Source: an uncultured Thermotogae bacterium (GTDB lineage Bacteria > Bipolaricaulota > Bipolaricaulia > M55B111). Taken from it: a stretch of 54,912 nucleotides of DNA. Position numbers and translations under genes: made by a program. Where the stretch lies: positions 1 to 54,912 of the forward strand of contig CAZTJJ010000006.1 of NCBI GenBank assembly GCA_964614065.1. The letters run 5' to 3'. Below the pieces are notes generated by a model. The model made no database searches and was not told the origin of the DNA. It saw nothing but the letters and a program-made list of their open reading frames with translations. Positions 1 through 50,988 of the stretch are shown one piece after another. Each line of letters opens with the position of its first letter. The stretch's first letter is position 1.

Positions 1-59
1 GCCCAGGATATCGGGTTCTCATCCCGGCGACAGGGGTTCGAATCCCCTCGGGACTACCA
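1..59 (+). tRNA. 3' portion of tRNA-Glu (anticodon CUC), truncated by the window edge
   Basis: Anticodon loop TTCTCAT (U33, CTC, A37) closed by stem TCGGG/CCCGG. A 4-nt variable loop is followed by T-arm AGGGG-TTCGAAT-CCCCT, acceptor 3' strand, discriminator A and an encoded CCA ending at 59. Strong identity to E. coli tRNA-Glu from GCCCAGGA through CAGGGGTTCGAATCCCCT. Confidence 0.6.
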
Positions 60-19179: not shown

Positions 19180-20073
19180 ATGTTTGAACTGAGAAAGATA
19201 GAAAACAACGCTAAGATTTTTCTGTCTGTCATTCCTCTCGCTACGATCCTTTGTATGCCAATTCCAATCCATGCACAAAAATCACAAACACAGCTTCAAC
19301 AGTTAATTCAAAGCGCGGACAAAGCTGCACATAAAGCTCAATTTCAAACTAGAACAGAAAGCCAACTCAGGAAATCACTGAAGATTTACCAACAAGTTAT
19401 CGAACTTGATCCCACCAATAGACACTCTCTTAACAGGCTATCACTTGGATACTTTACGCTGGCAGAAGCTTACCTGAAAGATGGAGAAGAAAAAATCCAA
19501 GTTTATAACAAGGGTTACCGGTATGGTTTAAAAAGCCTCCGGACAAATCCAGATTTTGATAAGTTCTATAACGAAAAAGGTTTCTCTGCATTAAAAGATA
19601 TACCTAAATCAGTCGTAAATATAGAAGGGTTGTTCTGGACCGCGGCGAACTTGGGGAGAACCGCGGAATCGGACGGGGTATTAGAATCACTTAACAAACT
19701 CCCTGCTTTGGTCAGCCCAAACCGTAAAATCCTTGAACTGGACGAAGAGTACCTGGGGGGCGCGGCACATAGGATGCTAGGTTCCATTTCCGCCGAGGTT
19801 TTGAAAAGGATGCCCTTCACTTTACCACAGAAATTGATACACGGTTTCAGCTGGAAAAAAACAAAAGCACATTTCGACAAGGCAATTGAATCAGCGCCCA
19901 ACTGTTTGGAAAATTACTTTTACTACGCCAAATACTACGCACTAAACAAGGGTAAGACAGATGAAGCCAGAAAATTGTTGAAAAAAGTCCTCGAAGAACC
20001 TTTAGGAAATACGTATCCTCTGGTAAACACTATTGCAAAGAAGAAAGCAGTGGAGTTGCTTAAAGAAATTTGA
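19180..20073 (+). CDS. Hypothetical secreted protein
   Basis: N-terminal signal peptide (…IPIHAQ). Helical, TPR-like composition. No recognised catalytic motifs. Confidence 0.5.
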   Translation: MFELRKIENNAKIFLSVIPLATILCMPIPIHAQKSQTQLQQLIQSADKAAHKAQFQTRTESQLRKSLKIYQQVIELDPTNRHSLNRLSLGYFTLAEAYLKDGEEKIQVYNKGYRYGLKSLRTNPDFDKFYNEKGFSALKDIPKSVVNIEGLFWTAANLGRTAESDGVLESLNKLPALVSPNRKILELDEEYLGGAAHRMLGSISAEVLKRMPFTLPQKLIHGFSWKKTKAHFDKAIESAPNCLENYFYYAKYYALNKGKTDEARKLLKKVLEEPLGNTYPLVNTIAKKKAVELLKEI

Positions 20074-40656: not shown

Positions 40657-41838
40657 TCACCACTGCTCGATGGCGAGTTTAATTCGATCAACTGCATCCT
40701 CTAGCACGACCACACTCGGCAAATAAGCGATCCTGAGATAACCGGGCATACCAAAAGCACTGCCCGGAATGGTGACCACGCCGCTTTTTTCAAGAAGCAC
40801 TCGAGTAAACTGAGAATCGCCCGACTCATCAAGACCAACCTCCAAAAGCAAATCCCTTACATCAGGGAACAGATAAAAGGCTCCCGGAGGTATCGGGCAA
40901 TCAATCCCCGAGACCTTGTTTAATTCCTGGGCTAGAAGATCGCGTTTTCTTTTAAACTCATGTCGAATGCTTTCCGACAATGACAACTCATGAGCGAATG
41001 CAGCCTGTGCGGCCTTCTGAGAGATAGAAGACGGGCTTGAGGTAAAGTGACTCTGAATTTTCTCCAACTCAGTCATGTACTTGGCTCTACCAATTACGTA
41101 ACCCACTCTCCATCCAGTCATAGCAAAAATCTTGGAAGTGGATCCAACCGTGAAACCCTTTGTATAACCTGATGATACCTGAGTCCAAAATCTATCTTGC
41201 TGATAAGTAAAACCGTCATAACACTCATCACTGATTACGAACAGATCTTCGGACCGCGCCAAATTGATAATTTCTTCACCTTGCTCCGTATTGTAAACTC
41301 CCCCAGTCGGATTTCCCGGGCTGTTAATCAAAATTACCTTGGTCCGAGGAGTCACCTTCTCCTCTATTTCAGAAACAGAAGGCAGATAATGATTTTGGGG
41401 TGCACCTCTTGCAAACACGGGTTCGCCCCTTGATAGCCGAACCTGCGCTGGATAGCTCGGATAGTACGGTCGAGGAAGGATAACCTGATCACCTTCCTCA
41501 AGCAAAAGTTGCATTATCTCAAATAAACCTGCCTTTGCTCCAGCAGTTACTAAAATAGAGTCATCGGAAGGATCGAGCCCAAAGACTTTCTGATACCTTT
41601 GCCCAATGGCCTCACGTAATTTAATAATACCACCGGCTTCAGTATAACCAGTAAAACCAGTTTTTATCGCATCGATTCCTGCAGCTCTAGCGACCTTGGG
41701 TTCCTGGAAACTGGGGTCTCCAGCTCCCAGATCAATTACGTCCTGCCCATCTCTCATCAATTGCTTGGCTCTGTCGTTAATCTCTTGTGTCTCTGACTTT
41801 CTTAAAGATTCTATGCGACCCGCCAGCAAGGAAATCAC
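40657..41838 (-). CDS. Class I/II PLP-dependent aminotransferase (AspC/TyrB-like)
   Basis: PLP-lysine region SKIFAMTGWRVGY. Last gene of the aromatic operon (overlaps the aroQ stop by 4 nt), so a probable aromatic-amino-acid aminotransferase. Confidence 0.85.
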   Translation of the reverse strand: MISLLAGRIESLRKSETQEINDRAKQLMRDGQDVIDLGAGDPSFQEPKVARAAGIDAIKTGFTGYTEAGGIIKLREAIGQRYQKVFGLDPSDDSILVTAGAKAGLFEIMQLLLEEGDQVILPRPYYPSYPAQVRLSRGEPVFARGAPQNHYLPSVSEIEEKVTPRTKVILINSPGNPTGGVYNTEQGEEIINLARSEDLFVISDECYDGFTYQQDRFWTQVSSGYTKGFTVGSTSKIFAMTGWRVGYVIGRAKYMTELEKIQSHFTSSPSSISQKAAQAAFAHELSLSESIRHEFKRKRDLLAQELNKVSGIDCPIPPGAFYLFPDVRDLLLEVGLDESGDSQFTRVLLEKSGVVTIPGSAFGMPGYLRIAYLPSVVVLEDAVDRIKLAIEQW

Positions 41839-42269
41839 TCCTCTGTTATATGTGAAGCCAATCGGCGTAAACCGATAGCATAGCCCTCTAGCCCTTGCCC
41901 GGATATCTGCTGGACAGCAACCGGTTCTACAACTGATTTCCGTCGAAAATCCTCCCGGTTCTCTATATCGGAAATATGTACCTCGATCACCGGCAAGTTT
42001 ATCGCCTCCAGGGCATCCCTTAAACTATAGCTATAGTGAGCCAAAGCGCCAGGATTAATAAGTACACCCTTTGCTACTTTTCTGTGCTCATGTAGAAAAT
42101 CAATTATCTTTCCCTCGTGATTTGACTGAAAGAAAATTAACTGCTCATCAAGTTCTTTCGCCCGTGCGGATAACTTCTTTTCAAGAAAAGAAAGACCCTT
42201 TGACCCATAAATCTCCGGCTTTCTCTCACCTAATAGATTAAGATTGGGTCCGTTAACAACTAAGATCAT
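41835..42269 (-). CDS. aroQ: Type II 3-dehydroquinate dehydratase
   Basis: MILVVNGPNLNLLGERKPEIYG is canonical for AroQ; 144 aa. Confidence 0.9.
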   Translation of the reverse strand: MILVVNGPNLNLLGERKPEIYGSKGLSFLEKKLSARAKELDEQLIFFQSNHEGKIIDFLHEHRKVAKGVLINPGALAHYSYSLRDALEAINLPVIEVHISDIENREDFRRKSVVEPVAVQQISGQGLEGYAIGLRRLASHITEE

Positions 42270-42354
42270 AATCTCACCTCAATGGTGTGATTCCCTTCCT
42301 TATGAACATCTCCTAGGAAAGAATTGTTAATTAAATAAATAGCTTATGCTTCAA

Positions 42355-42530
42355 CCAAAACTTGCCGAGGAAGCCCTCCAGCACCCAATTAGCCCTGCTC
42401 ATATGGTCTAGGAGCACATACAATATTAGTTCCGAATTGACTACTGGGTCTTATTGTTGTAAAAGAACAACGTCCGTGGTTAAATCTGTTTTTCTACAAG
42501 CCCCGTTCCTTGGGGCGGGGCTCTTGACTG
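42355..42530 (-). repeat. Intergenic modular element, copy D, split by a ~120-bp insertion flanked by a duplicated AAGCCC
   Basis: Left module ACCAAAACTTGCCGAGGAAGCCC (42355-42377). Right module CAAGCCCCGTTCCTTGGGGCGGGGCTCTTGACTG (42497-42530). The same two modules are contiguous at 53191-53240. Confidence 0.5.
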
Positions 42531-42579
42531 GATTTGTTCATCAATTGGATTCAGCTCAGTAAGTTAGACAAAACTCTTT

Positions 42580-43677
42580 CTAGAACTGCAAATTCATGAT
42601 GAAATCAAGGGCTCCACCTATTTCAGATCTGTCCACGGGTTCTACAGATACGTCTTCTCCTATCTCGTTTACTATGACCGAATAGATAGTTTCCTCTCGG
42701 CTTTTTTTATCCTGACTTACGTATTCTAACAGGCGTCCTTGGGTAAAATCTTGTGGTATCTTTGGCAAGCTAATGCTCGTCAATGAGTCTACAACTTCCT
42801 GGAGAGTATCCTCAGATAAATTGCCTCTCCGGTAGGAAATCCATAACTCACCCACCATTCCCCAAATTACCGCTTCACCGTGCCGCATACTGCCATAACC
42901 TAGCCCCGCTTCGATCCCGTGACCCAGCGTATGGCCAAAATTGAGTACTTTTCGCAAACCGCGGTCCTTCTCGTCCCGGGTGACTATTTCTGTTTTTATT
43001 CCACAACATCGAGCTATAACTCCCTCCAGCTCTTGACAATCTTTCAATTCTTGGAACACCTGAATATTGCTTACTACCCTATTTAACAAATCCTTATCCC
43101 AAATGATACCGTATTTGAGTATCTCGCCAAGACCTGATCGGACGTCCCTGTCCGATAGCGTAGATAAGATTTCAGGATCGATCAAGACCAACCGGGGTTG
43201 ATAAAATGTGCCCACGAGATTCTTTCCTTCAGATAGATTAACCCCGGTTTTACCTCCTACACTACTGTCCACTTGGGCCAATAGAGTTGTCGGTACCTGC
43301 ACATAGCGGAGACCTCGAAGGAAAGTCGAAGCAACAAAGCCTGCCAAGTCCCCGACGACGCCTCCTCCAAATGCAACAACCACCGAATCGCGACTTAAAT
43401 TCAATTTGGCAAGATCCTGATACAGTTTTTTTGCAACCGAAATAGATTTTGACTCCTCGCCCGGAGATACTACCAATTTCACCATCCCGATATCAGTTAA
43501 CCCCAAAGAGTTGACCAGCTTCTCGCCATACAGATCATCAACATGTTCATCCGTGATAGCGACAACCTGCCTGGCGGATAAATAACTTTCGAGCCTCTCG
43601 CCCACAACAATTAAGGAACCTTCCTCGATTAGAATCGGGTAACTGCATGAATCAAGATCGACTTCAATTTTTTTCAT
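42580..43677 (-). CDS. aroB: 3-dehydroquinate synthase
   Basis: GGGVVGDLAGF NAD-binding motif and metal-binding His residues; 365 aa. Confidence 0.9.
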   Translation of the reverse strand: MKKIEVDLDSCSYPILIEEGSLIVVGERLESYLSARQVVAITDEHVDDLYGEKLVNSLGLTDIGMVKLVVSPGEESKSISVAKKLYQDLAKLNLSRDSVVVAFGGGVVGDLAGFVASTFLRGLRYVQVPTTLLAQVDSSVGGKTGVNLSEGKNLVGTFYQPRLVLIDPEILSTLSDRDVRSGLGEILKYGIIWDKDLLNRVVSNIQVFQELKDCQELEGVIARCCGIKTEIVTRDEKDRGLRKVLNFGHTLGHGIEAGLGYGSMRHGEAVIWGMVGELWISYRRGNLSEDTLQEVVDSLTSISLPKIPQDFTQGRLLEYVSQDKKSREETIYSVIVNEIGEDVSVEPVDRSEIGGALDFIMNLQF

Positions 43678-43777
43678 TCTCTCACCTTGACACTCTCAGT
43701 TAAACGAAAGAATAAGCGGTTCTTGGTTGCACCCAACCTTTCCGATACTCTAACTCTTTCCATCTAGGAGTGTAAAT

Positions 43778-44344
43778 TCACTCAACACTTCCTTCCACCG
43801 AACCTAACAAGTCATCGGGCAAACTTTCAACGACTTTTCTTATCACTTTTTGCGGTTCCGTACTATTACATTTCACCTGTATATCGGCCTGCTGATATAC
43901 AGGATGACGTTTCAATAATAATTGCTTGATTTTAGCCCGGCACTCATCCTCCCCCAAATTGGCAAGTAGTGGACGTGATCCATCAGATCCAATTCTGCTA
44001 TATGCCTCTTCCGGACCTACTTCTAGATAAATGATGATACCCGTTGAGGACATCCGAGACCAATTTTCATTATCCATAGGTGCTCCCCCACCAACTGAGA
44101 CTACTACTGGAGGGTCCTCGCTAACTTCTTTAAGCACTTCCTTCTCTAATTCTCTAAATCTAAGTTCACCATAATAGTCAAAAATCTCCGCAACAGAAAA
44201 ACGAGCTCGCTCCTCAACTATATCATCAATATCGACCCAATCCATATTTAATTTCTCTGCAAGTTTAGGGGCCACTGTGGATTTACCCGCGCCCATAAAT
44301 CCAATCAGATAAATGTTCACCAGTTCTTCCATAGGACTAATCAC
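43778..44344 (-). CDS. aroK: Shikimate kinase
   Basis: P-loop GFMGAGKST; 188 aa. Confidence 0.85.
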   Translation of the reverse strand: MISPMEELVNIYLIGFMGAGKSTVAPKLAEKLNMDWVDIDDIVEERARFSVAEIFDYYGELRFRELEKEVLKEVSEDPPVVVSVGGGAPMDNENWSRMSSTGIIIYLEVGPEEAYSRIGSDGSRPLLANLGEDECRAKIKQLLLKRHPVYQQADIQVKCNSTEPQKVIRKVVESLPDDLLGSVEGSVE

Positions 44345-45506
44345 CCCCGAACCAACTCTCCAATTTACCGATATATTCCTTGTACCGCTCGTTTATTTCT
44401 TGCATAGTGTCTCCTCCAAACTTGTCCAAAAACGCTTTCAAAACGAGGTTAGCGAGAACGGCTTCTCCGACCACCGATGCCGCTGGAACAGCACAAACAT
44501 CGGATCTCTCCTTGGCAGCGCTCTCGCTGGTTCCGGTAATCAAATTGACGGAATTTAGAGGTTTTGTCAGCGTAGGAATCGGCTTCATAGCTGCGGTCAC
44601 CACTATTGCCTGACCATTGCTGACGCCTCCTTCAATTCCACCAGCGTTGTTTGTCTTTCTATAAAACCCCCTATCTTCGTCGTGGTATATCTCATCGTGC
44701 ACTTCCGACCCTCGCTTCTCTCCAACTTCTCTGCCCAGCCCTATCTCGACGGACTTTACGGCAGGGATACTCATGAACCCCGAGGAAATTCGGCTGTCCA
44801 ACCTATCCAAAGGATCCCGATAGGAACCCAATCCCGGGGGCATTCCCGTCACAGCTACTTCAAAAACCCCACCAAGACTATCGCCCTCTTCTTTAGCAGA
44901 ATCGATTTCCCTTATTATTTCATCTTCAATCCCACTATCAATAACTCGCACAGGCGAATTTTCGGTAAGCTCGCTCCAGCTTGAAATACTAACTTTTGAA
45001 TCATCGACTACTCCCCCAATCCGGATTACCCTGCTCAGGATTTTGATCTCAAATTTGCCCAACAATGTTTTAGACAAGCCTCCAACGGCAACCCTTCCGG
45101 CAGTCTCTCGAGCAGAAGACCTCTCTAACACTTTTCTGCAATCACGATACCCCCGTTGCAGTGAACCAGCCAAATCTGCATGTCCAGGTCGTGGAAGATT
45201 CAACTCTCGACCCTCACTACCAGCTTTTTCAGGAGATACCACCTGGCGCCAGTTCTTCCAATCCCTATTTTTAACCCACAAAGTGATCGGCGTTCCCAGG
45301 GTCTTGCCATTGTAAAAACCAGACAGTATCTCCACTTCATCCTGTTCTATGTCCATTCGACTACCTCGTCCGTATCCACCCTGTCTGCGCCTGAGATCCT
45401 CGTGAATCAAATCTTTATCGTACTCGAGACCCGAAGGAAAACCTTTAACTACACTCACAATTCCCTTACCGTGCGATTCCCCAGCAGTAAAACTACTAAA
45501 TTCCAT
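44337..45506 (-). CDS. aroC: Chorismate synthase
   Basis: FTAGESHG N-terminal signature; 389 aa. Confidence 0.95.
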   Translation of the reverse strand: MEFSSFTAGESHGKGIVSVVKGFPSGLEYDKDLIHEDLRRRQGGYGRGSRMDIEQDEVEILSGFYNGKTLGTPITLWVKNRDWKNWRQVVSPEKAGSEGRELNLPRPGHADLAGSLQRGYRDCRKVLERSSARETAGRVAVGGLSKTLLGKFEIKILSRVIRIGGVVDDSKVSISSWSELTENSPVRVIDSGIEDEIIREIDSAKEEGDSLGGVFEVAVTGMPPGLGSYRDPLDRLDSRISSGFMSIPAVKSVEIGLGREVGEKRGSEVHDEIYHDEDRGFYRKTNNAGGIEGGVSNGQAIVVTAAMKPIPTLTKPLNSVNLITGTSESAAKERSDVCAVPAASVVGEAVLANLVLKAFLDKFGGDTMQEINERYKEYIGKLESWFGGD

Positions 45507-45513
45507 CGACCAC

Positions 45514-46380
45514 TCACCTCATAAAAGATTTCACGTCATTTAACATATCAATAGAATCAAATTCCGCATCCGTCCACAGCTTCAATGACTCAAGTCCCTG
45601 TAGAATCAGCATGTCCAAACCACCAATTGTCCTTGCACCCTGACTGGACGCCATCTCTAGGAAACGAGTCGGATAGGGATTATAAATCAGGTCGTAGACC
45701 ATTTGATCTGAACGAAATACGCCAGTACTATCCCATACACTTTTGTCTTCATCGCCCTTCATTCCCACGGACGTTGCATTAACTATTAAGTCCGCCTCTC
45801 GTAGCTTCTCACTCAAACCCACACGTGACAACGATTCACAGGTCAATCCAGTTCCGTTGGAATACGGAGACAATTGATTAACTAAATCCTCGGCGTTCTC
45901 CAGCGTTCTATTGGCAACCAAAATCTGGCCGGTGTTCATATGGAGTAAACCGTACACCACACCTGCAGCAGCGCCCCCGGCCCCAAAGACAAAACATTTT
46001 TTACCTCGAGGCTCAAACTCATTATATTGGAGGGACTTGATGAACCCAAGCCAATCCGTATTCTCGCCCCGCAATTTGCCATTATCCTGGAATACTACGG
46101 TATTTACCGCGGACATTGCCTTAGCGGACTTTGACAAATCGTCCATCTCATTGAGCACAGTTTTCTTATAAGGCACCGTAACGTTGAGACCACCCACGCC
46201 CAGTGCCCGGCACCCTCTAATCGCCTGGAAGACTAATTCCCGCTCGACCGAAAAAGCCAGATAGATATAATTCAGATTCAACCGATCGATAACGTAATTA
46301 TGCAACTCAGGGGATAGAGAACCGCTCACCGGATTTCCAATTAATCCTAGTAGCTGCGTAGTCGAATTAAGCTTATCCAT
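45514..46380 (-). CDS. aroE: Shikimate dehydrogenase
   Basis: LIGNPVSGSLSP N-terminal signature and GAGGAA NADP-binding motif; 288 aa. Confidence 0.9.
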   Translation of the reverse strand: MDKLNSTTQLLGLIGNPVSGSLSPELHNYVIDRLNLNYIYLAFSVERELVFQAIRGCRALGVGGLNVTVPYKKTVLNEMDDLSKSAKAMSAVNTVVFQDNGKLRGENTDWLGFIKSLQYNEFEPRGKKCFVFGAGGAAAGVVYGLLHMNTGQILVANRTLENAEDLVNQLSPYSNGTGLTCESLSRVGLSEKLREADLIVNATSVGMKGDEDKSVWDSTGVFRSDQMVYDLIYNPYPTRFLEMASSQGARTIGGLDMLILQGLESLKLWTDAEFDSIDMLNDVKSFMR

Positions 46381-47671
46381 CTTTTAGCTCCTCTAGCTTA
46401 TCGAAAAAGCCAGGGAAGGAAACCTCCACCCATTTAGGGTCGACAATTGTAGTTTTTCCGTCACTAACCTGAGCAGCAACTGCCATGCTCATAGCTATTC
46501 TATGATCCATGTAACTATCAACAGAGCCACCAGACAATGGTGCTTGACCTTCAACCACAAATCCATCCTGGAGCTCGTGGGCATCGGCTCCCAACCTTCT
46601 CAAATTGTCAACTGTTGCCTTAATCCTATCCGTCTCCTTCACTCTCAATTCCTCGGCGTCGGTTACTGTAGTAGTCCCCCGTGCCTGAGTGGCGAGAACC
46701 CCGAGCAAAGGCAATTCGTCTATAGCCTTTACCACGTCAGAGCCTGATAGCTCAACGCTCTTCAAATCGGAATAAGTAACGAAAATATCGCCCACAGGCT
46801 CCTCACTTTCCGTTCGTCGATTTTCAACTGAAACAGAGGCACCCATTTTGTTTATCAAGTCCAAAAAACCTGTCCTGGTACTATTGAGACCCACCTTCCT
46901 GATCAGTATTTCCGAACCTTCGAGAATGAGGGCGGCCGCAATGAAGTAACTGGCGGAAGAAAAATCGCCCGGAACCGTGCTGTCAATCGGACTTAATTGC
47001 TGTGGCCCATCTACCTCTATCACATTTTCCTCCACCTTTACTGGATAATCCATGGCCTTTAGCATTCGCTCGGTATGATCACGAGAAGGACCAGGCTCTA
47101 CCACTACGGTGCGACCCTCCGCAGCAAGACCTGCCAATAGCACACATGACTTTACCTGAGCACTGGCCACTTTCGGCCTGTAAACAATTCCTTTAAGGCC
47201 CCCGCCTTCTATTTTCAAAGGCGCGTGTCCGTCTTCCGAGATCACTTCCGCTTCCATCTTCTTCAAGGGAACAACAATCCGCTTCATGGGACGAGAACGT
47301 AAAGATTCGTCACCGGTAATTACGGAGGTGAAATTCTGCCCGCACAAAACCCCCGTTAACAGTCTGATTAAAGTCCCAGAATTGCCAGCATCTAAAGCAG
47401 AACCGGGCGGCGTATAGTTCATTAGACCTTTTCCTAAGACAGAAATTCCGTCATTACCATCCTGAATTTCCACTCCAAGCTGACTTAGACAACTGACCAT
47501 GCTTCTAAGATCTTCACCAGGTGCGATGTTTCTAACAAAGCTTTCGCCGGTCGCCAAACTACCTAACAATAGAGCTCTATGTGATATCGATTTGTCTCCG
47601 GGTACAGTTATCTCACCCTTCAAAGGCTTCCCACCGGTTAGTTCCAGCTGATTACTCCCACTTCCGGTCAT
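46373..47671 (-). CDS. aroA: 3-phosphoshikimate 1-carboxyvinyltransferase (EPSP synthase)
   Basis: GEITVPGDKSISHRALLLGSLA N-terminal signature; 432 aa. Confidence 0.95.
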   Translation of the reverse strand: MTGSGSNQLELTGGKPLKGEITVPGDKSISHRALLLGSLATGESFVRNIAPGEDLRSMVSCLSQLGVEIQDGNDGISVLGKGLMNYTPPGSALDAGNSGTLIRLLTGVLCGQNFTSVITGDESLRSRPMKRIVVPLKKMEAEVISEDGHAPLKIEGGGLKGIVYRPKVASAQVKSCVLLAGLAAEGRTVVVEPGPSRDHTERMLKAMDYPVKVEENVIEVDGPQQLSPIDSTVPGDFSSASYFIAAALILEGSEILIRKVGLNSTRTGFLDLINKMGASVSVENRRTESEEPVGDIFVTYSDLKSVELSGSDVVKAIDELPLLGVLATQARGTTTVTDAEELRVKETDRIKATVDNLRRLGADAHELQDGFVVEGQAPLSGGSVDSYMDHRIAMSMAVAAQVSDGKTTIVDPKWVEVSFPGFFDKLEELKDG

Positions 47672-48801
47672 TACTCAATCACCCTCGCCTGGAAACCGCT
47701 GTTAAGCATAATTTTGTTGGCCTTTTCCGCCTCAGAATGCGTCTCGAAGTAGAGGTGAAAGGTACCTCCGTAATCCTCTCGTACCTTTTGTAATTCCAAA
47801 TCTTTGAGATTGATTCCTTCGTCTGCAATTATAGAAGTTAACTCAGCCAGTGCTCCCGGCTTATCAGGGATCATAACTGCGACCTTAAAAGTTTGAGAGG
47901 AGATACCTTTGGTCGAGGCGGGCAAATTTTTTCTCAACTCCGAAACCTCGACAAACTTTTCTTCCATTTCATCATTGCCAACCAGTTCGCGGAGATCTTC
48001 CATAATATCGACAAACCTGTCAATTTCATCAGAAATCAGCTCGCCGTTAGTGGAGAAAATATCCGACCAAACGTCAAACGGTGAGCTAGCGATTCTGGTC
48101 ATATCTTTAAACCCACCACCAGCAAACTGCAGATAGTCGCAGTCTATTTGGGTCTCTCCAATACCAGTTTCTTCTTGAACCGCCTTCATCAAACCAATAG
48201 ACACTATCTGGGGCAAATGACTAATTCTTGCCACTATCCTATCGTGAGAAAAAGGAGAAAGATGCCGAGGTTCGGTCCCTAAGCCAGTCAGAAAACTTGC
48301 CAGCTTCTTGGATGATGCCGTGGGTTGTCCGTCACGAGTACATAAGACAAACACACTATTCTCGTAAAGCAGCGGATGTGCTCCCGCCATTCCTTTAATC
48401 TCTGCTCCCGTCATAGGATGGCCACCAATAAAACTACCTTGAGAACGATCAAAGTAATCCCAGCCTGTACGACAAATTTCCAACTTTGTCGATCCCAGAT
48501 CCATAACTACAGTACCTCTTTCTACCAAATCAGAAAGCTTCTTTACGTTTTGTAATACCTGATCAACTGGTGTAGCTAACACCACTAAATCCGATCCGTC
48601 TATTGACTCCTTTAAATCCTCCGGCTGATAGGCTTTGTCAAGTGTCTCCCGTCGCAAAGCAATTTTCAATTGCTTTTGAAAATCGACACCGACCACCTTG
48701 GTAGCCGGATAGAAATCCTTGACTGCTAACCCAAAAGAGCCACCCATTAGTCCCAAACCAACTATAGTTATCTGTGAAAAGTTAGTTTCCGACCTCATCA
48801 A
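47671..48801 (-). CDS. tyrA: Prephenate dehydrogenase with C-terminal ACT domain
   Basis: ITIVGLGLMGGSFG Rossmann motif; C-terminal ACT-like regulatory domain; 376 aa. Confidence 0.85.
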   Translation of the reverse strand: MMRSETNFSQITIVGLGLMGGSFGLAVKDFYPATKVVGVDFQKQLKIALRRETLDKAYQPEDLKESIDGSDLVVLATPVDQVLQNVKKLSDLVERGTVVMDLGSTKLEICRTGWDYFDRSQGSFIGGHPMTGAEIKGMAGAHPLLYENSVFVLCTRDGQPTASSKKLASFLTGLGTEPRHLSPFSHDRIVARISHLPQIVSIGLMKAVQEETGIGETQIDCDYLQFAGGGFKDMTRIASSPFDVWSDIFSTNGELISDEIDRFVDIMEDLRELVGNDEMEEKFVEVSELRKNLPASTKGISSQTFKVAVMIPDKPGALAELTSIIADEGINLKDLELQKVREDYGGTFHLYFETHSEAEKANKIMLNSGFQARVIE

Positions 48802-49823
48802 GCTTTTACCATATTGTCATGAAGAGTTTGTGAAATCTGCGCTACTTGATCCATCAAGCTGCTGAATTGTTCAAATCGCAAGGATTGAGGACCATCGCTT
48901 TTAGCTTTCTCCGGTTCGTTGTGAACCTCCACGATCATGCCGTCCGCGCCGGCGGCAATACCCGCCCGGGCCATCGGTATCACTTTGTCCCTAACCCCTG
49001 TGCTGTGACTTGGATCAATAATAATTGGCAAATGGCTCAACTCCTTAATAACCGGTACCACGGACAGATCCAGGGTAAACCGCGTTTCATCAGAAAACGT
49101 CCTAATTCCGCGTTCACATAAGATAACTCTCTCGTTTCCTTCCGACATTACGTATTCCGCAGCCATTAAAAACTCCTCAACCGTTGAAGAAAACCCCCGT
49201 TTCAGCAAAACAGGCGTACTGGTTCTCCCTACCTCTCTTAATAAATTGTAATTTTGCATGTTTCTAGCACCAATTTGCAGAATATCTGCGTATTCGTTTA
49301 CTAACTTAACCTGAGTTCTGTCCATTACTTCCGTCACCACACCCAAGCCGTTGTTATCCGCAGCCTGCCTCATATACTTGAGTCCCTCTTCGCCAAGACC
49401 CTGAAAGCTATAGGGTGAAGTCCTCGGCTTAAACGCCCCACCTCGCAGCACAGTAGCTCCATGCGATGCGACGTATTTAGCTATGGTTTCAATTTGTGTT
49501 CTTGATTCGATTGCGCAGGGACCACCCATAGTCACCGTTTCCCCACCGCCAATTTGGACACCATTTACCTCAATTACAGTATCCATCGGATGAAAATCTC
49601 TACCAGCGAGCTTGTAGGGTTCACTAACTTCAGTCACTTTTAACACCCCTTCATTCAATACCTCCAGTTCCCGGGCATCAATTCCACTTTTATCACCAAT
49701 TGCGCCCAGAGTCATATAATCGACTCCCTGAGAAAAGTGAACACTAAAACCCATTTCAACTAACTTTTCCTCGACTTGAGTAACCTGGTCTTTCGTTGCA
49801 TCTGGTTTCATCACCACAATCAT
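48798..49823 (-). CDS. 3-deoxy-7-phosphoheptulonate (DAHP) synthase, type I-beta with N-terminal regulatory domain
   Basis: N-terminal ferredoxin-like/ACT-type domain (MIVVMKPDATKDQV…) fused to a KDO8PS-like TIM barrel (GPCAIES…KPRTSPY). RBS GGGAGG precedes the ATG at 49823, which lies 1 nt after the chorismate mutase stop. Confidence 0.9.
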   Translation of the reverse strand: MIVVMKPDATKDQVTQVEEKLVEMGFSVHFSQGVDYMTLGAIGDKSGIDARELEVLNEGVLKVTEVSEPYKLAGRDFHPMDTVIEVNGVQIGGGETVTMGGPCAIESRTQIETIAKYVASHGATVLRGGAFKPRTSPYSFQGLGEEGLKYMRQAADNNGLGVVTEVMDRTQVKLVNEYADILQIGARNMQNYNLLREVGRTSTPVLLKRGFSSTVEEFLMAAEYVMSEGNERVILCERGIRTFSDETRFTLDLSVVPVIKELSHLPIIIDPSHSTGVRDKVIPMARAGIAAGADGMIVEVHNEPEKAKSDGPQSLRFEQFSSLMDQVAQISQTLHDNMVKA

Positions 49824-49824
49824 T

Positions 49825-50085
49825 TTAGCAAACCTCCCGTTCAAGATTCTTTGTTTCTGCAATAATCTTTCTATAAATCTCCGTGATCTGCTCGTCACTA
49901 AAAGGTCCTCCGTTCATTTTTTTCACGCCTGTAATGACCTCCTCTTCCCGAGAACTGTCAACGATATCGAGATCAAATCGCTTTTTCTGATCTCCTATTT
50001 CCAACGCAACTTTAGCCCGATTGTTTAACAACCCGACTATTTTTCTGTCGATTTTGTCTATCTGTCTCCGCAAATCTTCTATCAT
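49825..50085 (-). CDS. Chorismate mutase (AroQ class)
   Basis: IEDLRRQIDKIDRKIVGLLNNRAKVALEIGDQKK matches the AroQ CM helix-1 signature. RBS GGAGGAGG precedes the ATG at 50085; the ORF track extends it to 50112. Confidence 0.8.
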   Translation of the reverse strand: MIEDLRRQIDKIDRKIVGLLNNRAKVALEIGDQKKRFDLDIVDSSREEEVITGVKKMNGGPFSDEQITEIYRKIIAETKNLEREVC

Positions 50086-50100
50086 ATCCTCCTCCACAAC

Positions 50101-50128
50101 AAAAAAGACCACAGGAAACCTGCAGTCT
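50101..50128 (-). terminator. Intrinsic terminator/attenuator in the aromatic-operon leader: AGACUGCAGG-UUUC-CCUGUGGUCU followed by UUUUUU
   Basis: 10-bp stem (two G·U pairs) plus a T6 tract, ending 3 nt before the RBS GGAGGAGG of chorismate mutase. Seen directly in the sequence. Confidence 0.7.
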
Positions 50129-50168
50129 AGTTACGATCTAAAGCCTAACTTGGAGGAAGGGCCTTAGA

Positions 50169-50294
50169 TCAACTTACAAAATAAAAATAGCCAAAAAAAT
50201 GAGTAATTGTGTTAGTGAGTGAGGTAGAAAGGGCGGGTGCCAAAGACGTAGGCTTGCTTCTGTATAGGTTTAATTCCAACTCTTTCTCACTCAT
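50169..50294 (-). CDS. Putative Phe/Tyr-rich leader peptide of the aromatic operon (MSEKELELNLYRSKPTSLAPALSTSLTNTITHFFGYFYFVS)
   Basis: A 41-codon ORF starting 9 nt after the TATAAT -10, so near-leaderless. Its last 9 codons include 4 Phe and 2 Tyr. Its stop overlaps the 5' arm of an 11-bp hairpin (GATCTAAGGCC…GGCTTTAGATC), with the terminator ~40 nt downstream. Confidence 0.55.
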   Translation of the reverse strand: MSEKELELNLYRSKPTSLAPALSTSLTNTITHFFGYFYFVS

Positions 50295-50303
50295 AATATA
50301 GTG

Positions 50304-50332
50304 ATTATATCAAGGGTATCCTGAAGGGTCAA
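50304..50332 (-). promoter_or_regulatory. Sigma-70-type promoter of the aromatic operon: TTGACC, 17-nt spacer, TATAAT
   Basis: Near-consensus -35 and perfect -10 with a 17-nt spacer on the minus strand, ~220 nt upstream of the chorismate mutase start. Confidence 0.65.
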
Positions 50333-50505
50333 CCCTATCAAGAAGGTTAAGGTTAAATTCTTGCCTAAACTGAACTAAGTTCGGCTTATCAGGTGACTCT
50401 AACCCATGGCAACAAAGAGCCTACCCGGCCTACAAACGTAGAACCATCAACCTGTCTTACCTCTACCTCCATATCTCTCTTCAAATCGAATTCTGATTTC
50501 TATAA

Positions 50506-50988
50506 TCAGTCCACCCTCTCTTCAACAGCAGCAATAGCCTGACCCCCTACACCATCTCCACTACCAATAAATCCCATTTTCTCAGGCGTTGTGGCTTTAA
50601 TGTTTACCGGAGCACTCACAATTCTTTCGATATTCTCCACCATCTCCTCCCGTCGCGAGCTAATATTAGGCTCCTGTAACACAAGCGTAGAGTCAACGTT
50701 CCTCACCTTATATCCTGCCCCCGCAATCTTTTTTACCACCTTGCTCAGCAGCTTTAGACTGGATATATTATGATACGCAGGGTCGTTGTCGGGAAAGTGA
50801 ACACCGATATCACCCAGTCCAGCAGCTCCTAGTATTGCATCGCAAATGGCATGAATCAAAACGTCACCGTCGGAGAAAGCAACGGTTCCCTTGGGAAAAT
50901 CGTACTCAACACCTCCCAGGATAAGGCTTTCGCCACGCTTTAGTTTATGGAAATCAAGGCCCAGACCGACCCTTATCGGATTAGCCAT
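50506..50988 (-). CDS. ispF: 2-C-methyl-D-erythritol 2,4-cyclodiphosphate synthase
   Basis: RVGLGLDFHKL…DGDVLIHAICDAILGA signature; 160 aa. Confidence 0.9.
   Translation of the reverse strand: MANPIRVGLGLDFHKLKRGESLILGGVEYDFPKGTVAFSDGDVLIHAICDAILGAAGLGDIGVHFPDNDPAYHNISSLKLLSKVVKKIAGAGYKVRNVDSTLVLQEPNISSRREEMVENIERIVSAPVNIKATTPEKMGFIGSGDGVGGQAIAAVEERVD

Follow-up and report, generated by a model that had tools for sequence, protein, structure and literature searches.

The window analysed here, a 54.9-kb stretch of DNA (54,912 nucleotides, contig CAZTJJ010000006.1) from an uncultured bacterium of the Bipolaricaulota, carries ten genes of aromatic amino acid biosynthesis (40657-50085) that are preceded by a short leader region (50101-50332), a putative Phe/Tyr attenuator and the subject of this study. 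All these elements lie on the minus strand, to which the coordinates refer throughout. The leader is composed of a sigma-70-type promoter, an open reading frame (ORF) that ends in a block of Phe and Tyr codons, a hairpin overlapping the stop codon of this ORF, and a predicted intrinsic terminator located just before the ribosome-binding site (RBS) of the first gene. An earlier sequence-only reading of this DNA had described these features as an attenuator of the pheL/trpL type, and each of them was recovered in its place.

The Pfam analysis of the ten downstream products agrees with the gene content previously read from the sequence. These are chorismate mutase (CM; CM_2), DAHP synthase (DAHPS; DAHP_synth_1 and FXD), tyrA (PDH and ACT), aroA (EPSP synthase), aroE (shikimate dehydrogenase), aroC (chorismate synthase), aroK (shikimate kinase), aroB (DHQ synthase), aroQ (DHQase II) and an aminotransferase of class I/II. 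No prephenate dehydratase was detected among the ten products by Pfam, in agreement with the earlier reading of an operon without pheA. The RBS of CM, UGGAGGAGG, occupies 50096-50088 and is followed by the ATG at 50085, the two together spanning 50083-50096. The assignment of all ten genes to one operon is less secure than their identity. Indeed, since a non-coding gap of 310 nt (42270-42579) parts aroB from aroQ, the ten genes may belong to more than one transcription unit rather than to a single 10-gene transcript. This gap contains a GCCCCG...CGGGGC hairpin without U tract, and the gap between aroK and aroB measures 100 nt.

Among species-representative genomes, the closest DAHP synthases are those of three Candidatus Bipolaricaulota metagenome-assembled genomes (MAGs; 79-80% identity), two of them labelled Thermotogae, and the next ones are at most 64% identical. 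All three of these ~80% relatives possess the same leader. A DNA-pattern scan of JGI metagenomes provided two true new loci and two chance matches. A search with a single CM sequence retrieved two clusters only, and a profile search with the aligned CM proteins delineated a discrete clade of ~33 CM clusters (E <= 6e-30, followed by a gap to 9e-22), eleven of which were looked up for their upstream sequence. The leader is present at every locus that reaches far enough upstream of the orthologous CM-DAHPS operons. This gave 18 distinct leader versions, all from Candidatus Bipolaricaulota/Acetothermia; the counts given below refer to 16 aligned leaders for the promoter and the reading frame, to 17 sequences for the hairpin and its loop and to 18 leaders for the C-terminal motif of the ORF. 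Among 77 DAHPS loci from more distantly related organisms, mainly of other phyla, none contains the core motif TAYTTYTAYTTYGT, and no second copy was found elsewhere in the window. Identical CM proteins are encoded on three metagenome/SRA contigs, with the same upstream neighbours ndk, recA, recX and ispF. Samples in which the contig of the window occurs include ENA ERZ27257089, JGI 3300026197 and SRR5468419. Rfam includes leader-peptide families, none of which matched here at E <= 10: the search over 49900-50520 at this threshold returned chance-level matches only, and at gathering score the sole match in the window is a tRNA fragment. This fragment is the 3' part of a tRNA gene (positions 1-56, plus strand), cut at the window edge.

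The near-consensus promoter TTGACC-17-TATAAT noted by the sequence-only reading lies at 50332-50304, with the -35 hexamer at 50332-50327, a 17-nt spacer and the -10 hexamer at 50309-50304, directly preceded by TG. It matches the sigma-70 consensus at 11 of 12 positions and is the sole match of this quality in the whole window. TATAAT is invariant in the 16 aligned relatives, and the -35 hexamer reads TTGAC/TTGAAG in all of them. The ATG of the leader ORF (50294-50292) starts nine nucleotides after the -10 hexamer, and this spacing is identical in 16/16 sequences. Because of this proximity, the ORF was described as effectively leaderless, a description with which the spacing in the relatives agrees. 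The predicted transcription start is the A at 50297, 7 nt after the -10 hexamer, which would give a 5' untranslated region of 3 nt. A purine (A or G) is found at this position in all 16 aligned sequences, and the mRNA would begin with R-Y-U-AUG. No Shine-Dalgarno (SD) sequence precedes the leader ATG in the window sequence. Elsewhere in the window, two ordinary genes of 297 and 479 aa (at 19180, plus strand, and 37383, minus strand) have an ATG preceded at 6-8 nt by a TATAAT-like hexamer, which suggests that leaderless mRNAs may be common in this organism.

The leader ORF (50294-50169) consists of 41 codons, MSEKELELNLYRSKPTSLAPALSTSLTNTITHFFGYFYFVS, and of the stop codon UGA at 50171-50169. 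Six of its last nine sense codons are for Phe or Tyr, as counted previously, and the aromatic identity of the regulatory block F33 F34 G35 Y36 F37 Y38 F39 (50198-50178) is kept across the 18 leaders. Their C-terminal consensus is [Y/H/C/F][F/I/Y]F[G/N]YFY[F/S][V/L][S/T/N]-UGA, and the N-terminus is variable. Phe at positions -5 and -8 is written either TTT or TTC, Phe at -9 is replaced by Tyr in the L108 leader, and the sole non-aromatic position of the block changes from Gly to Asn. Such a pattern, with Phe and Tyr maintained through synonymous and F-to-Y changes, points to selection on the aromatic identity of the codons. A rare-codon effect can be ruled out, since TTT and TAT are common codons in this genome. 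Frame 0 is free of stop codons in 16/16 relatives, compared with 54 and 38 stops in the other two frames. With the variable part shuffled, the probability of an open frame is ~0.16-0.32 per sequence, the N-terminus occurring in five or six independent variants. The ORFs are 39, 40, 41, 42 or 43 codons long, all indels between the fixed ATG and the fixed C-terminal motif being in frame. Substitutions between close pairs show no codon-position bias over the N-terminal three quarters of the peptide, which fits a leader peptide whose sequence matters only at the regulatory codons. Gene callers omit the ORF in all loci except L108.

Two further elements are located within the ORF. The nucleotides of the mid-ORF element CCCUUUCU (50226-50233) are conserved even where they are read in differing frames (GCC CTT TCT vs CCC TTT CTA), which argues for a constraint at the RNA or DNA level. 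In addition, the 5' half of the ORF can form a long-range stem, P0 (50217-50292), in which GAGUGAG (50292-50286), beginning at the G of the ATG, pairs with CUCACUC (50223-50217). A P0-like stem is present in most relatives in lineage-specific versions (GAGUGAG/CUCACUC, GCGAGUG/CACUCGC, GAGAGCGCAG/CUGCGC..CUC and GGUGCU/GGCACC), and the energies of P0 are not significant taken alone. P0 could restrict leaderless initiation to nascent transcripts.

The stop codon overlaps the 5' arm of an 11-bp hairpin, hereafter HP1 (50135-50170), an arrangement already visible to the earlier reading and kept in relatives. The 5' arm GAUCUAAGGCC (50170-50160) and the 3' arm GGCUUUAGAUC (50145-50135) enclose the loop CUUCCUCCAAGUUA (50159-50146), and the 5' arm begins with the G and A of the stop codon. 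All 18 leaders have UGA as their stop, in a genome whose genes use TAA, TGA and TAG, and this invariance can be attributed to the pairing of the G and A in HP1. HP1 is 100% paired in the 17 sequences compared. Three pairs carry one-sided, wobble-compatible changes, and two pairs of L105 have both partners replaced (U-A to C-G and C-G to U-A). Since all these changes are RNA-compatible, either G-U or compensatory, HP1 must be maintained as an RNA helix rather than as a DNA operator. The HP1 arms and the 3' arm of the second hairpin are almost invariant, although the CM proteins are only ~50% identical across lineages.

The loop of HP1 contains an anti-SD sequence, CUUCCUCCA (50151-50159), complementary to the CM RBS at 50096-50088. 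In the window, the loop:RBS duplex reaches -15.6 kcal/mol, compared with -9.1 kcal/mol for shuffled loops. Across lineages, the complementarity extends over 7-9 nt with energies of -9 to -16 kcal/mol and beats that of shuffled loops in 16 of 17 cases (p <= 0.03 in most). In the first alignment, CCUCC is present in the HP1 loop of 14/16 leaders, the exceptions being CCUCA in L094 and CUCC in L100; the L108 loop has CCUCC as well. The facing GGAGG of the CM RBS is kept in all relatives, with GGGGG in L102. Additional complementarity is found 5' of CCUCC in the window clade (CUUCCUCCA:UGGAGGAGG) and 3' of it in the other clade (CCUCCAA:UUGGAGG). Masking of the HP1 5' arm gives, for 16/16 leaders, a minimum free energy (MFE) structure in which the CM SD is paired to the loop anti-SD and this pairing encloses the terminator hairpin. 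In the window, the HP1 and anti-SD:SD states are nearly isoenergetic (-32.2 vs -30.0 kcal/mol). The sequence-only reading had taken this complementarity as a hint of a translational layer, and its retention in 16/17 lineages strengthens the suggestion. The locus L105 and the related L106 and L107 (CM cluster P0029) combine the ORF and the HP1 with two compensatory pairs with a lost CCUCC loop, a Leu codon (CUG) in place of Val at -2 and the U tract ACUUUGCC. In the MFE of L105, and in L105 only, the partner of the purine-rich RBS region is instead the U-rich F/Y tract.

The second hairpin, AGACUGCAGG-UUU-CCUGUGGUCU (50128-50106), has a 10-bp stem (50128-50119/50115-50106) and is followed by a run of six U that extends to 50101, just before the CM RBS. 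This predicted intrinsic terminator (50101-50128), another element of the earlier reading, is the only terminator-like site between 49500 and 51200 and the best hairpin-plus-U-run of the window, where terminator-like matches in general occur at shuffle level. The hairpin is kept in relatives with local energies of -13 to -17 kcal/mol; its top 7 pairs are 98% kept and one pair alternates between GU, AU and GC. The quality of the U tract varies, with UUUUUU in the window at one end and CCCUUUGC (L083) and ACUUUGCC (L105) at the other. The absence of a Phe/Tyr-rich ORF from orthologous leaders had been named as one ground for giving up the attenuator reading, and this was the one such test that was run: the Phe/Tyr ORF, the stop-codon hairpin, the terminator and the anti-SD loop are all kept in relatives.

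The sequence-only reading had seen no clean 2:3 antiterminator pairing by eye, and folding likewise gave only a weak candidate, AT1. It was first seen when folding transcripts truncated before the terminator 3' arm, as a recurrent extension of HP1 through UUU GUR pairing. In AT1, the ORF tail UUUGUA (codons F39 and V40, 50175-50180) pairs with the 5' arm of the terminator (50124-50119). AT1 is part of the MFE in 11 of 18 truncated transcripts. Its 6-mer is the sole ORF 6-mer able to pair fully with the terminator arm in 13/16 sequences, and 97% of the cells of the helix pair. The one compensatory pair of the helix, 50175:50124, which involves the third base of the Val codon, is A-U in three sequences, G-U in one or two and G-C elsewhere, but never A-C. 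The conserved Val at -2 and Phe at -3 would both be accounted for by this pairing. With a modelled ribosome, AT1 forms at or before ~codon -7 and is lost at codons -6 to -3. Its reach depends on the footprint assumed past the A-site codon, a footprint of 12 nt allowing stalls up to codon -7 and one of 8 nt up to ~codon -6. Overall, folding the leader for mutually exclusive structures yielded the weak AT1 and the anti-SD:SD alternative, whereas the terminator persisted in the equilibrium folds.

Collectively, these data suggest that the region is probably a Phe/Tyr-responsive, ribosome-mediated attenuator with a leaderless leader ORF. The core of the earlier proposal, a ribosome-sensed Phe/Tyr leader ORF and a terminator placed before an aromatic operon, is thus supported by conservation in relatives. 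How the switch works can be proposed with less assurance; a two-layer mechanism centred on HP1 and acting on transcription as well as translation seems to us conceivable from the modelled folds, with somewhat less than an even chance of being right. Transcription would start ~3 nt before the ATG, and a ribosome would load at the 5' end and translate the 41-codon ORF. The Phe/Tyr block ends where this ribosome would start unwinding HP1, and the stop codon lies within the HP1 base. Because of these two positions, a stalled ribosome would leave HP1 intact, while a ribosome completing the ORF would have to melt it. We consider this geometry of block, hairpin and stop codon more telling than the fold energies. 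When charged tRNA-Phe or tRNA-Tyr is scarce, the ribosome would wait in the block and HP1 could form behind RNA polymerase. With HP1 intact, the system would be ON: UUU GUR would extend HP1 through the terminator 5' arm, favouring read-through, and the anti-SD would be caged in the loop, leaving the CM RBS free. When Phe and Tyr are plentiful, the ribosome would reach UGA, cover the ORF tail and melt HP1. The system would then be OFF, the terminator would form and most transcripts would end at ~50101; in those that escape, the released anti-SD could pair with the CM RBS. That a single hairpin, unwound only by the ribosome finishing a leaderless ORF, sets both outputs of an attenuator devoid of the classical 1:2/2:3 logic is possible but rather doubtful. 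By analogy with rnTrpL of Sinorhizobium, a terminated leader RNA acting in trans (PMC6614838), the terminated leader, whose CCUCC loop would be exposed, might likewise target SD sequences in trans.

Several observations weigh against this mechanism. AT1 is G-U rich and its 6-bp helix alone contributes ~0 kcal/mol, or -2.6 to -7.4 kcal/mol with neighbouring pairs, compared with -13 to -17 kcal/mol for the terminator. It is missing from the MFE of 7/18 sequences, its central G-C pair is broken in L105, and its covariation amounts to about two evolutionary events. No strong classical antiterminator was detected, and wherever the modelled ribosome is placed, the equilibrium MFE retains the terminator. 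With the usual footprint, stalls at the codons Y-6 to F-3 mask AT1, so that the conservation of these codons is only partly explained. When the ribosome is placed at the stop codon, the 3' side of HP1 becomes free in the folds and is able to pair with the terminator 5' arm, contrary to the proposed logic. AT1 could also form without any ribosome, in which case untranslated RNA would default to ON. The whole 226-nt leader folds no better than shuffles (z = -0.65); the signal lies in the local elements and their conservation. The translational layer has its own difficulties. Since the loop anti-SD is identical to the 16S anti-SD, independent covariation of anti-SD and SD cannot be observed. Furthermore, the anti-SD complementarity is lost in L105 (-1.3 kcal/mol) and its U tract is poor, although the ORF and HP1 are retained; any switch in this lineage would have to do without the anti-SD.

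Other pairings and signals were considered and discarded. A strong 2:3 antiterminator of the classical kind is not formed, the terminator being kept in folds with the ribosome masked at F-9, Y-6, F-3 or the stop codon. The alternative C:E helix, a 12-bp antiterminator between GAUCU of the HP1 5' arm and AGGUC at the terminator base, lies 7-10 kcal/mol above HP1 plus AT1 when forced, and it is left without a partner in L100. A his-like domino, with GGCUUUA of the HP1 3' arm pairing to UAAGGUC, is seen (alignment, by eye) in the L002-type clade only and not in the window clade, and it would give read-through with the ribosome at the stop codon, that is, the wrong logic. The loci of this larger clade also differ in gene organization: their CM is 94-101 aa long and overlaps the DAHPS start by 32 nt, with an OsmC gene between ispF and the leader, while in the window clade the CM is 85-86 aa long and ends 1 nt before DAHPS, without OsmC. 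Pairing of the HP1 loop CCUCC with the G run of the terminator 5' arm reaches 3 bp at most in the window. A 1:2-type hairpin between GGCU of the F/Y tract and AGCC of the HP1 5' arm is lost in L100 and L103 (GGC to AAC). The mid-ORF element CCCUUUCU does not qualify as a second anti-SD, given that its RBS duplex energies are no better than those of shuffles. No T-box sequence was found by eye. Recoding (UGA read-through, SECIS or U-run frameshifting) was also rejected: in the downstream frames a stop is reached after 8-13 codons, and the loop lengths are not divisible by three.

Among other explanations of the locus, a purely translational attenuator is the most serious, though we consider it unlikely. 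Here, the alternation of HP1 with the anti-SD:SD pairing would gate the CM RBS, and the second hairpin would be a constitutive or leaky terminator, or a spacer joining anti-SD and SD. The complementarity of the loop to the RBS is indeed far stronger than AT1, masking of the HP1 5' arm leaves the SD paired in all 16 MFEs, and the energies of the two states are nearly equal in the window and in L088. The mycobacterial leaderless small ORFs (sORFs), which act on translation only, offer a precedent (bioRxiv 10.1101/834739), and the U tracts of several relatives are short, such as CCCUUUGC in L083 and ACUUUGCC in L105. However, the second hairpin of the window is a textbook terminator with 10 bp and six U, and an unregulated terminator before a biosynthetic operon makes little sense. 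In most lineages, moreover, HP1 is 7-12 kcal/mol stabler than the sequestered state, so that the OFF state would be transient, and L105 retains the ORF and HP1 without any anti-SD. A sensor based on the nascent peptide, as in TnaC or SpeFL, is far less probable. According to this explanation, the C-terminal YFFGYFYFV(N/S/T) would stall the ribosome at UGA on a free ligand, for instance Phe or Tyr, and the stalled ribosome would set the RNA fold. The conservation of the last ten residues beside a free N-terminus and the invariant UGA could be read in this way, all the more so as a ribosome held at UGA would keep HP1 melted. Yet the residues nearest to the peptidyl-transferase centre are those that vary (-1 S/T/N, -2 V/L, -3 F/S), whereas the conserved ones are exactly the end products of the pathway; the UGA is accounted for by its pairing in HP1, and no observation demands a ligand.

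The ORF could also be incidental to a structured non-coding leader, such as a riboswitch, a protein-binding RNA or an inverted-repeat DNA operator. We regard this as very improbable. The near invariance of the HP1 arms and of the hairpin-2 3' arm beside diverged CM proteins, and the conservation of the nucleotides of CCCUUUCU across differing frames, would be natural consequences of such a leader. Nevertheless, all 16 sequences keep the frame open while the other two frames together contain 92 stops, the indels are all in frame, and the F/Y identity survives synonymous and F-to-Y changes. The changes in HP1 are compatible with RNA but not tolerable for a symmetric DNA operator, and no Rfam family is detected even with the permissive threshold. 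There is just as little to be expected from the last explanation, in which the ORF would be an independent small gene for a functional hydrophobic micropeptide with its own terminator and the operon would depend on another promoter. The strong promoter, the strong terminator and the conserved C-terminus of the peptide would befit such a gene, but the ~15 nt between the terminator and the CM ATG are filled by the RBS and show no promoter-like site. The absence of codon-position bias from the first three quarters of the peptide and the strict association with CM-DAHPS also disagree with it.

The attenuator proposed here can be compared with several known systems. The classical pheL-pheA and trpL attenuators of E. 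coli follow a 1:2 / 2:3 / 3:4 design. With the present leader they have in common an ORF containing the end-product codons and an intrinsic terminator ahead of the first gene; in the mechanism proposed here, a ribosome positioned at the stop codon would also cover the 5' strand of the antiterminator, as it does in E. coli. Unlike in E. coli, there is no SD-led initiation here, and the candidate antiterminator, which prolongs a nested hairpin, is weak and rich in G-U pairs. A 1:2 hairpin that includes the regulatory codons was not detected either: the F/Y tract has no conserved partner, and the whole of HP1 lies on the 3' side of these codons. The classical Phe attenuator is pheL-pheA (PMC3082878). 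Because the 1:2 hairpin fails and the gated antiterminator is only a weak candidate, the pheL/trpL architecture put forward by the sequence-only reading is not retained; the element shares the known principle of attenuation and is filed as a distinct variant rather than as a member of the trpL/pheL family. The trp operon of B. subtilis combines TRAP-based attenuation with an SD-blocking hairpin for trpE. As in this operon, the present leader would hold two layers, a terminator and a sequestration of the first-gene SD in read-through transcripts, but the sensor in B. subtilis is the TRAP protein binding Trp and not a translating ribosome.

Closer functional parallels involve leaders of DAHP synthase genes. 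The aroR-aroF attenuator of C. glutamicum was reportedly described by Neshat et al. in 2014, and leader ORFs of the aroR kind lie on leaderless transcripts in this species. The aroR leader peptide (F-Y-F), located upstream of aroF, which encodes a DAHP synthase, is experimentally known, and only Phe limitation is effective there (PMC11802643). A short Phe/Tyr leader ORF before a DAHPS operon is common to both systems, and stalling on aroR raises transcription of the operon in C. glutamicum (PMC11802643). The parallel is functional only: C. glutamicum belongs to a different phylum and no relationship between the leader sequences is expected. Moreover, the leader ORFs described here have 39-43 codons, six or seven of them aromatic, their stop codon lies in a conserved hairpin with an anti-SD in its loop, and the operon adds CM, tyrA and the whole common pathway. 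A survey from 2005 reports no RNA regulation of Phe/Tyr genes in Actinobacteria (PMC1262725). In the mycobacterial polycysteine leaderless sORFs, the codon tract itself pairs with the SD, and the regulation is purely translational, without a terminator (bioRxiv 10.1101/834739). There too a leaderless sensory sORF comes first, as judged here from the sequence in 16/16 leaders, and a segment able to sequester the downstream RBS follows; in our leaders, by contrast, 20-45 nt separate the codon tract from the anti-SD, which sits further 3' in a hairpin loop, and a terminator is present. The Acholeplasma motif uORFC-13-1 upstream of aroF, predicted by comparative genomics only, likewise places a Phe-codon upstream ORF beside a terminator stem ahead of DAHP synthase (PMC8632094). 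That motif is set apart by having its own RBS, a U run coding at least one Phe, another lineage and another structure (PMC8632094). The element of the window differs from all the systems compared in joining leaderless initiation to a terminator, in carrying the stop codon within a conserved hairpin, and in holding an anti-SD in the loop of this hairpin. A literature search found no description of any attenuator in Bipolaricaulota.

Some of the more distant DAHPS loci show leader candidates of their own. For instance, in a Thermoanaerobaculia MAG (DASYJF010000072, locus L057, 2460-2640), a 16-codon ORF, MNHTAPRYAYYYGYFT, follows TTGACA-17-TATCCT with 10 nt to the ATG. GC-rich hairpins and then a strong terminator (AACCUCUUCCCGCGCGGGAAGAGG and U6) stand directly before the CM-DAHPS pair, and the fold has a z of -3.98. 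The arrangement resembles a classical Tyr/Phe attenuator, here in Acidobacteriota, and could be leaderless too. In a MAG labelled Thermotogae (L004, 2809-2930; DAHPS 58% identical), a 39-codon ORF with an SD ends in ...VFSFSFRFFVPPFWTPQGS, with a GACCCCUCAGGGGUC hairpin at its stop codon, upstream of DAHPS; here too a Phe-rich leader may be present, though of a different design. Two unrelated MAGs, of Clostridia and Gastranaerophilales, encode comparable open-frame peptides upstream of DAHPS, ...YNYFFAFFRHTHCK (L041, ~1730) and ...YNNFFTFFRLAHSK (L048, ~2320), respectively. Within the Bipolaricaulota themselves, the L096 leader (Logan SRR21542051) has a 5' half like the L097 type and a 3' half identical to L095 from the F/Y block on, and is either a natural recombinant or a chimeric assembly.

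This leader constitutes a concrete predicted regulatory element for the deep-branching Bipolaricaulota/Acetothermia, a phylum known almost wholly from metagenomes and whose first isolate was announced in a 2025 preprint (bioRxiv 10.1101/2025.11.21.689855). Elements of this kind are likely under-counted, since gene callers miss the ORF and Rfam misses the RNA. The nested hairpin with its anti-SD loop packs two layers into a compact design, one that synthetic biology could reuse if it works as proposed. For the bacteria themselves, the leader suggests leaderless translation and a joint sensing of Phe and Tyr through tRNA charging. If this is true, Phe/Tyr sensing would set the expression of the whole common shikimate pathway together with the Tyr branch.

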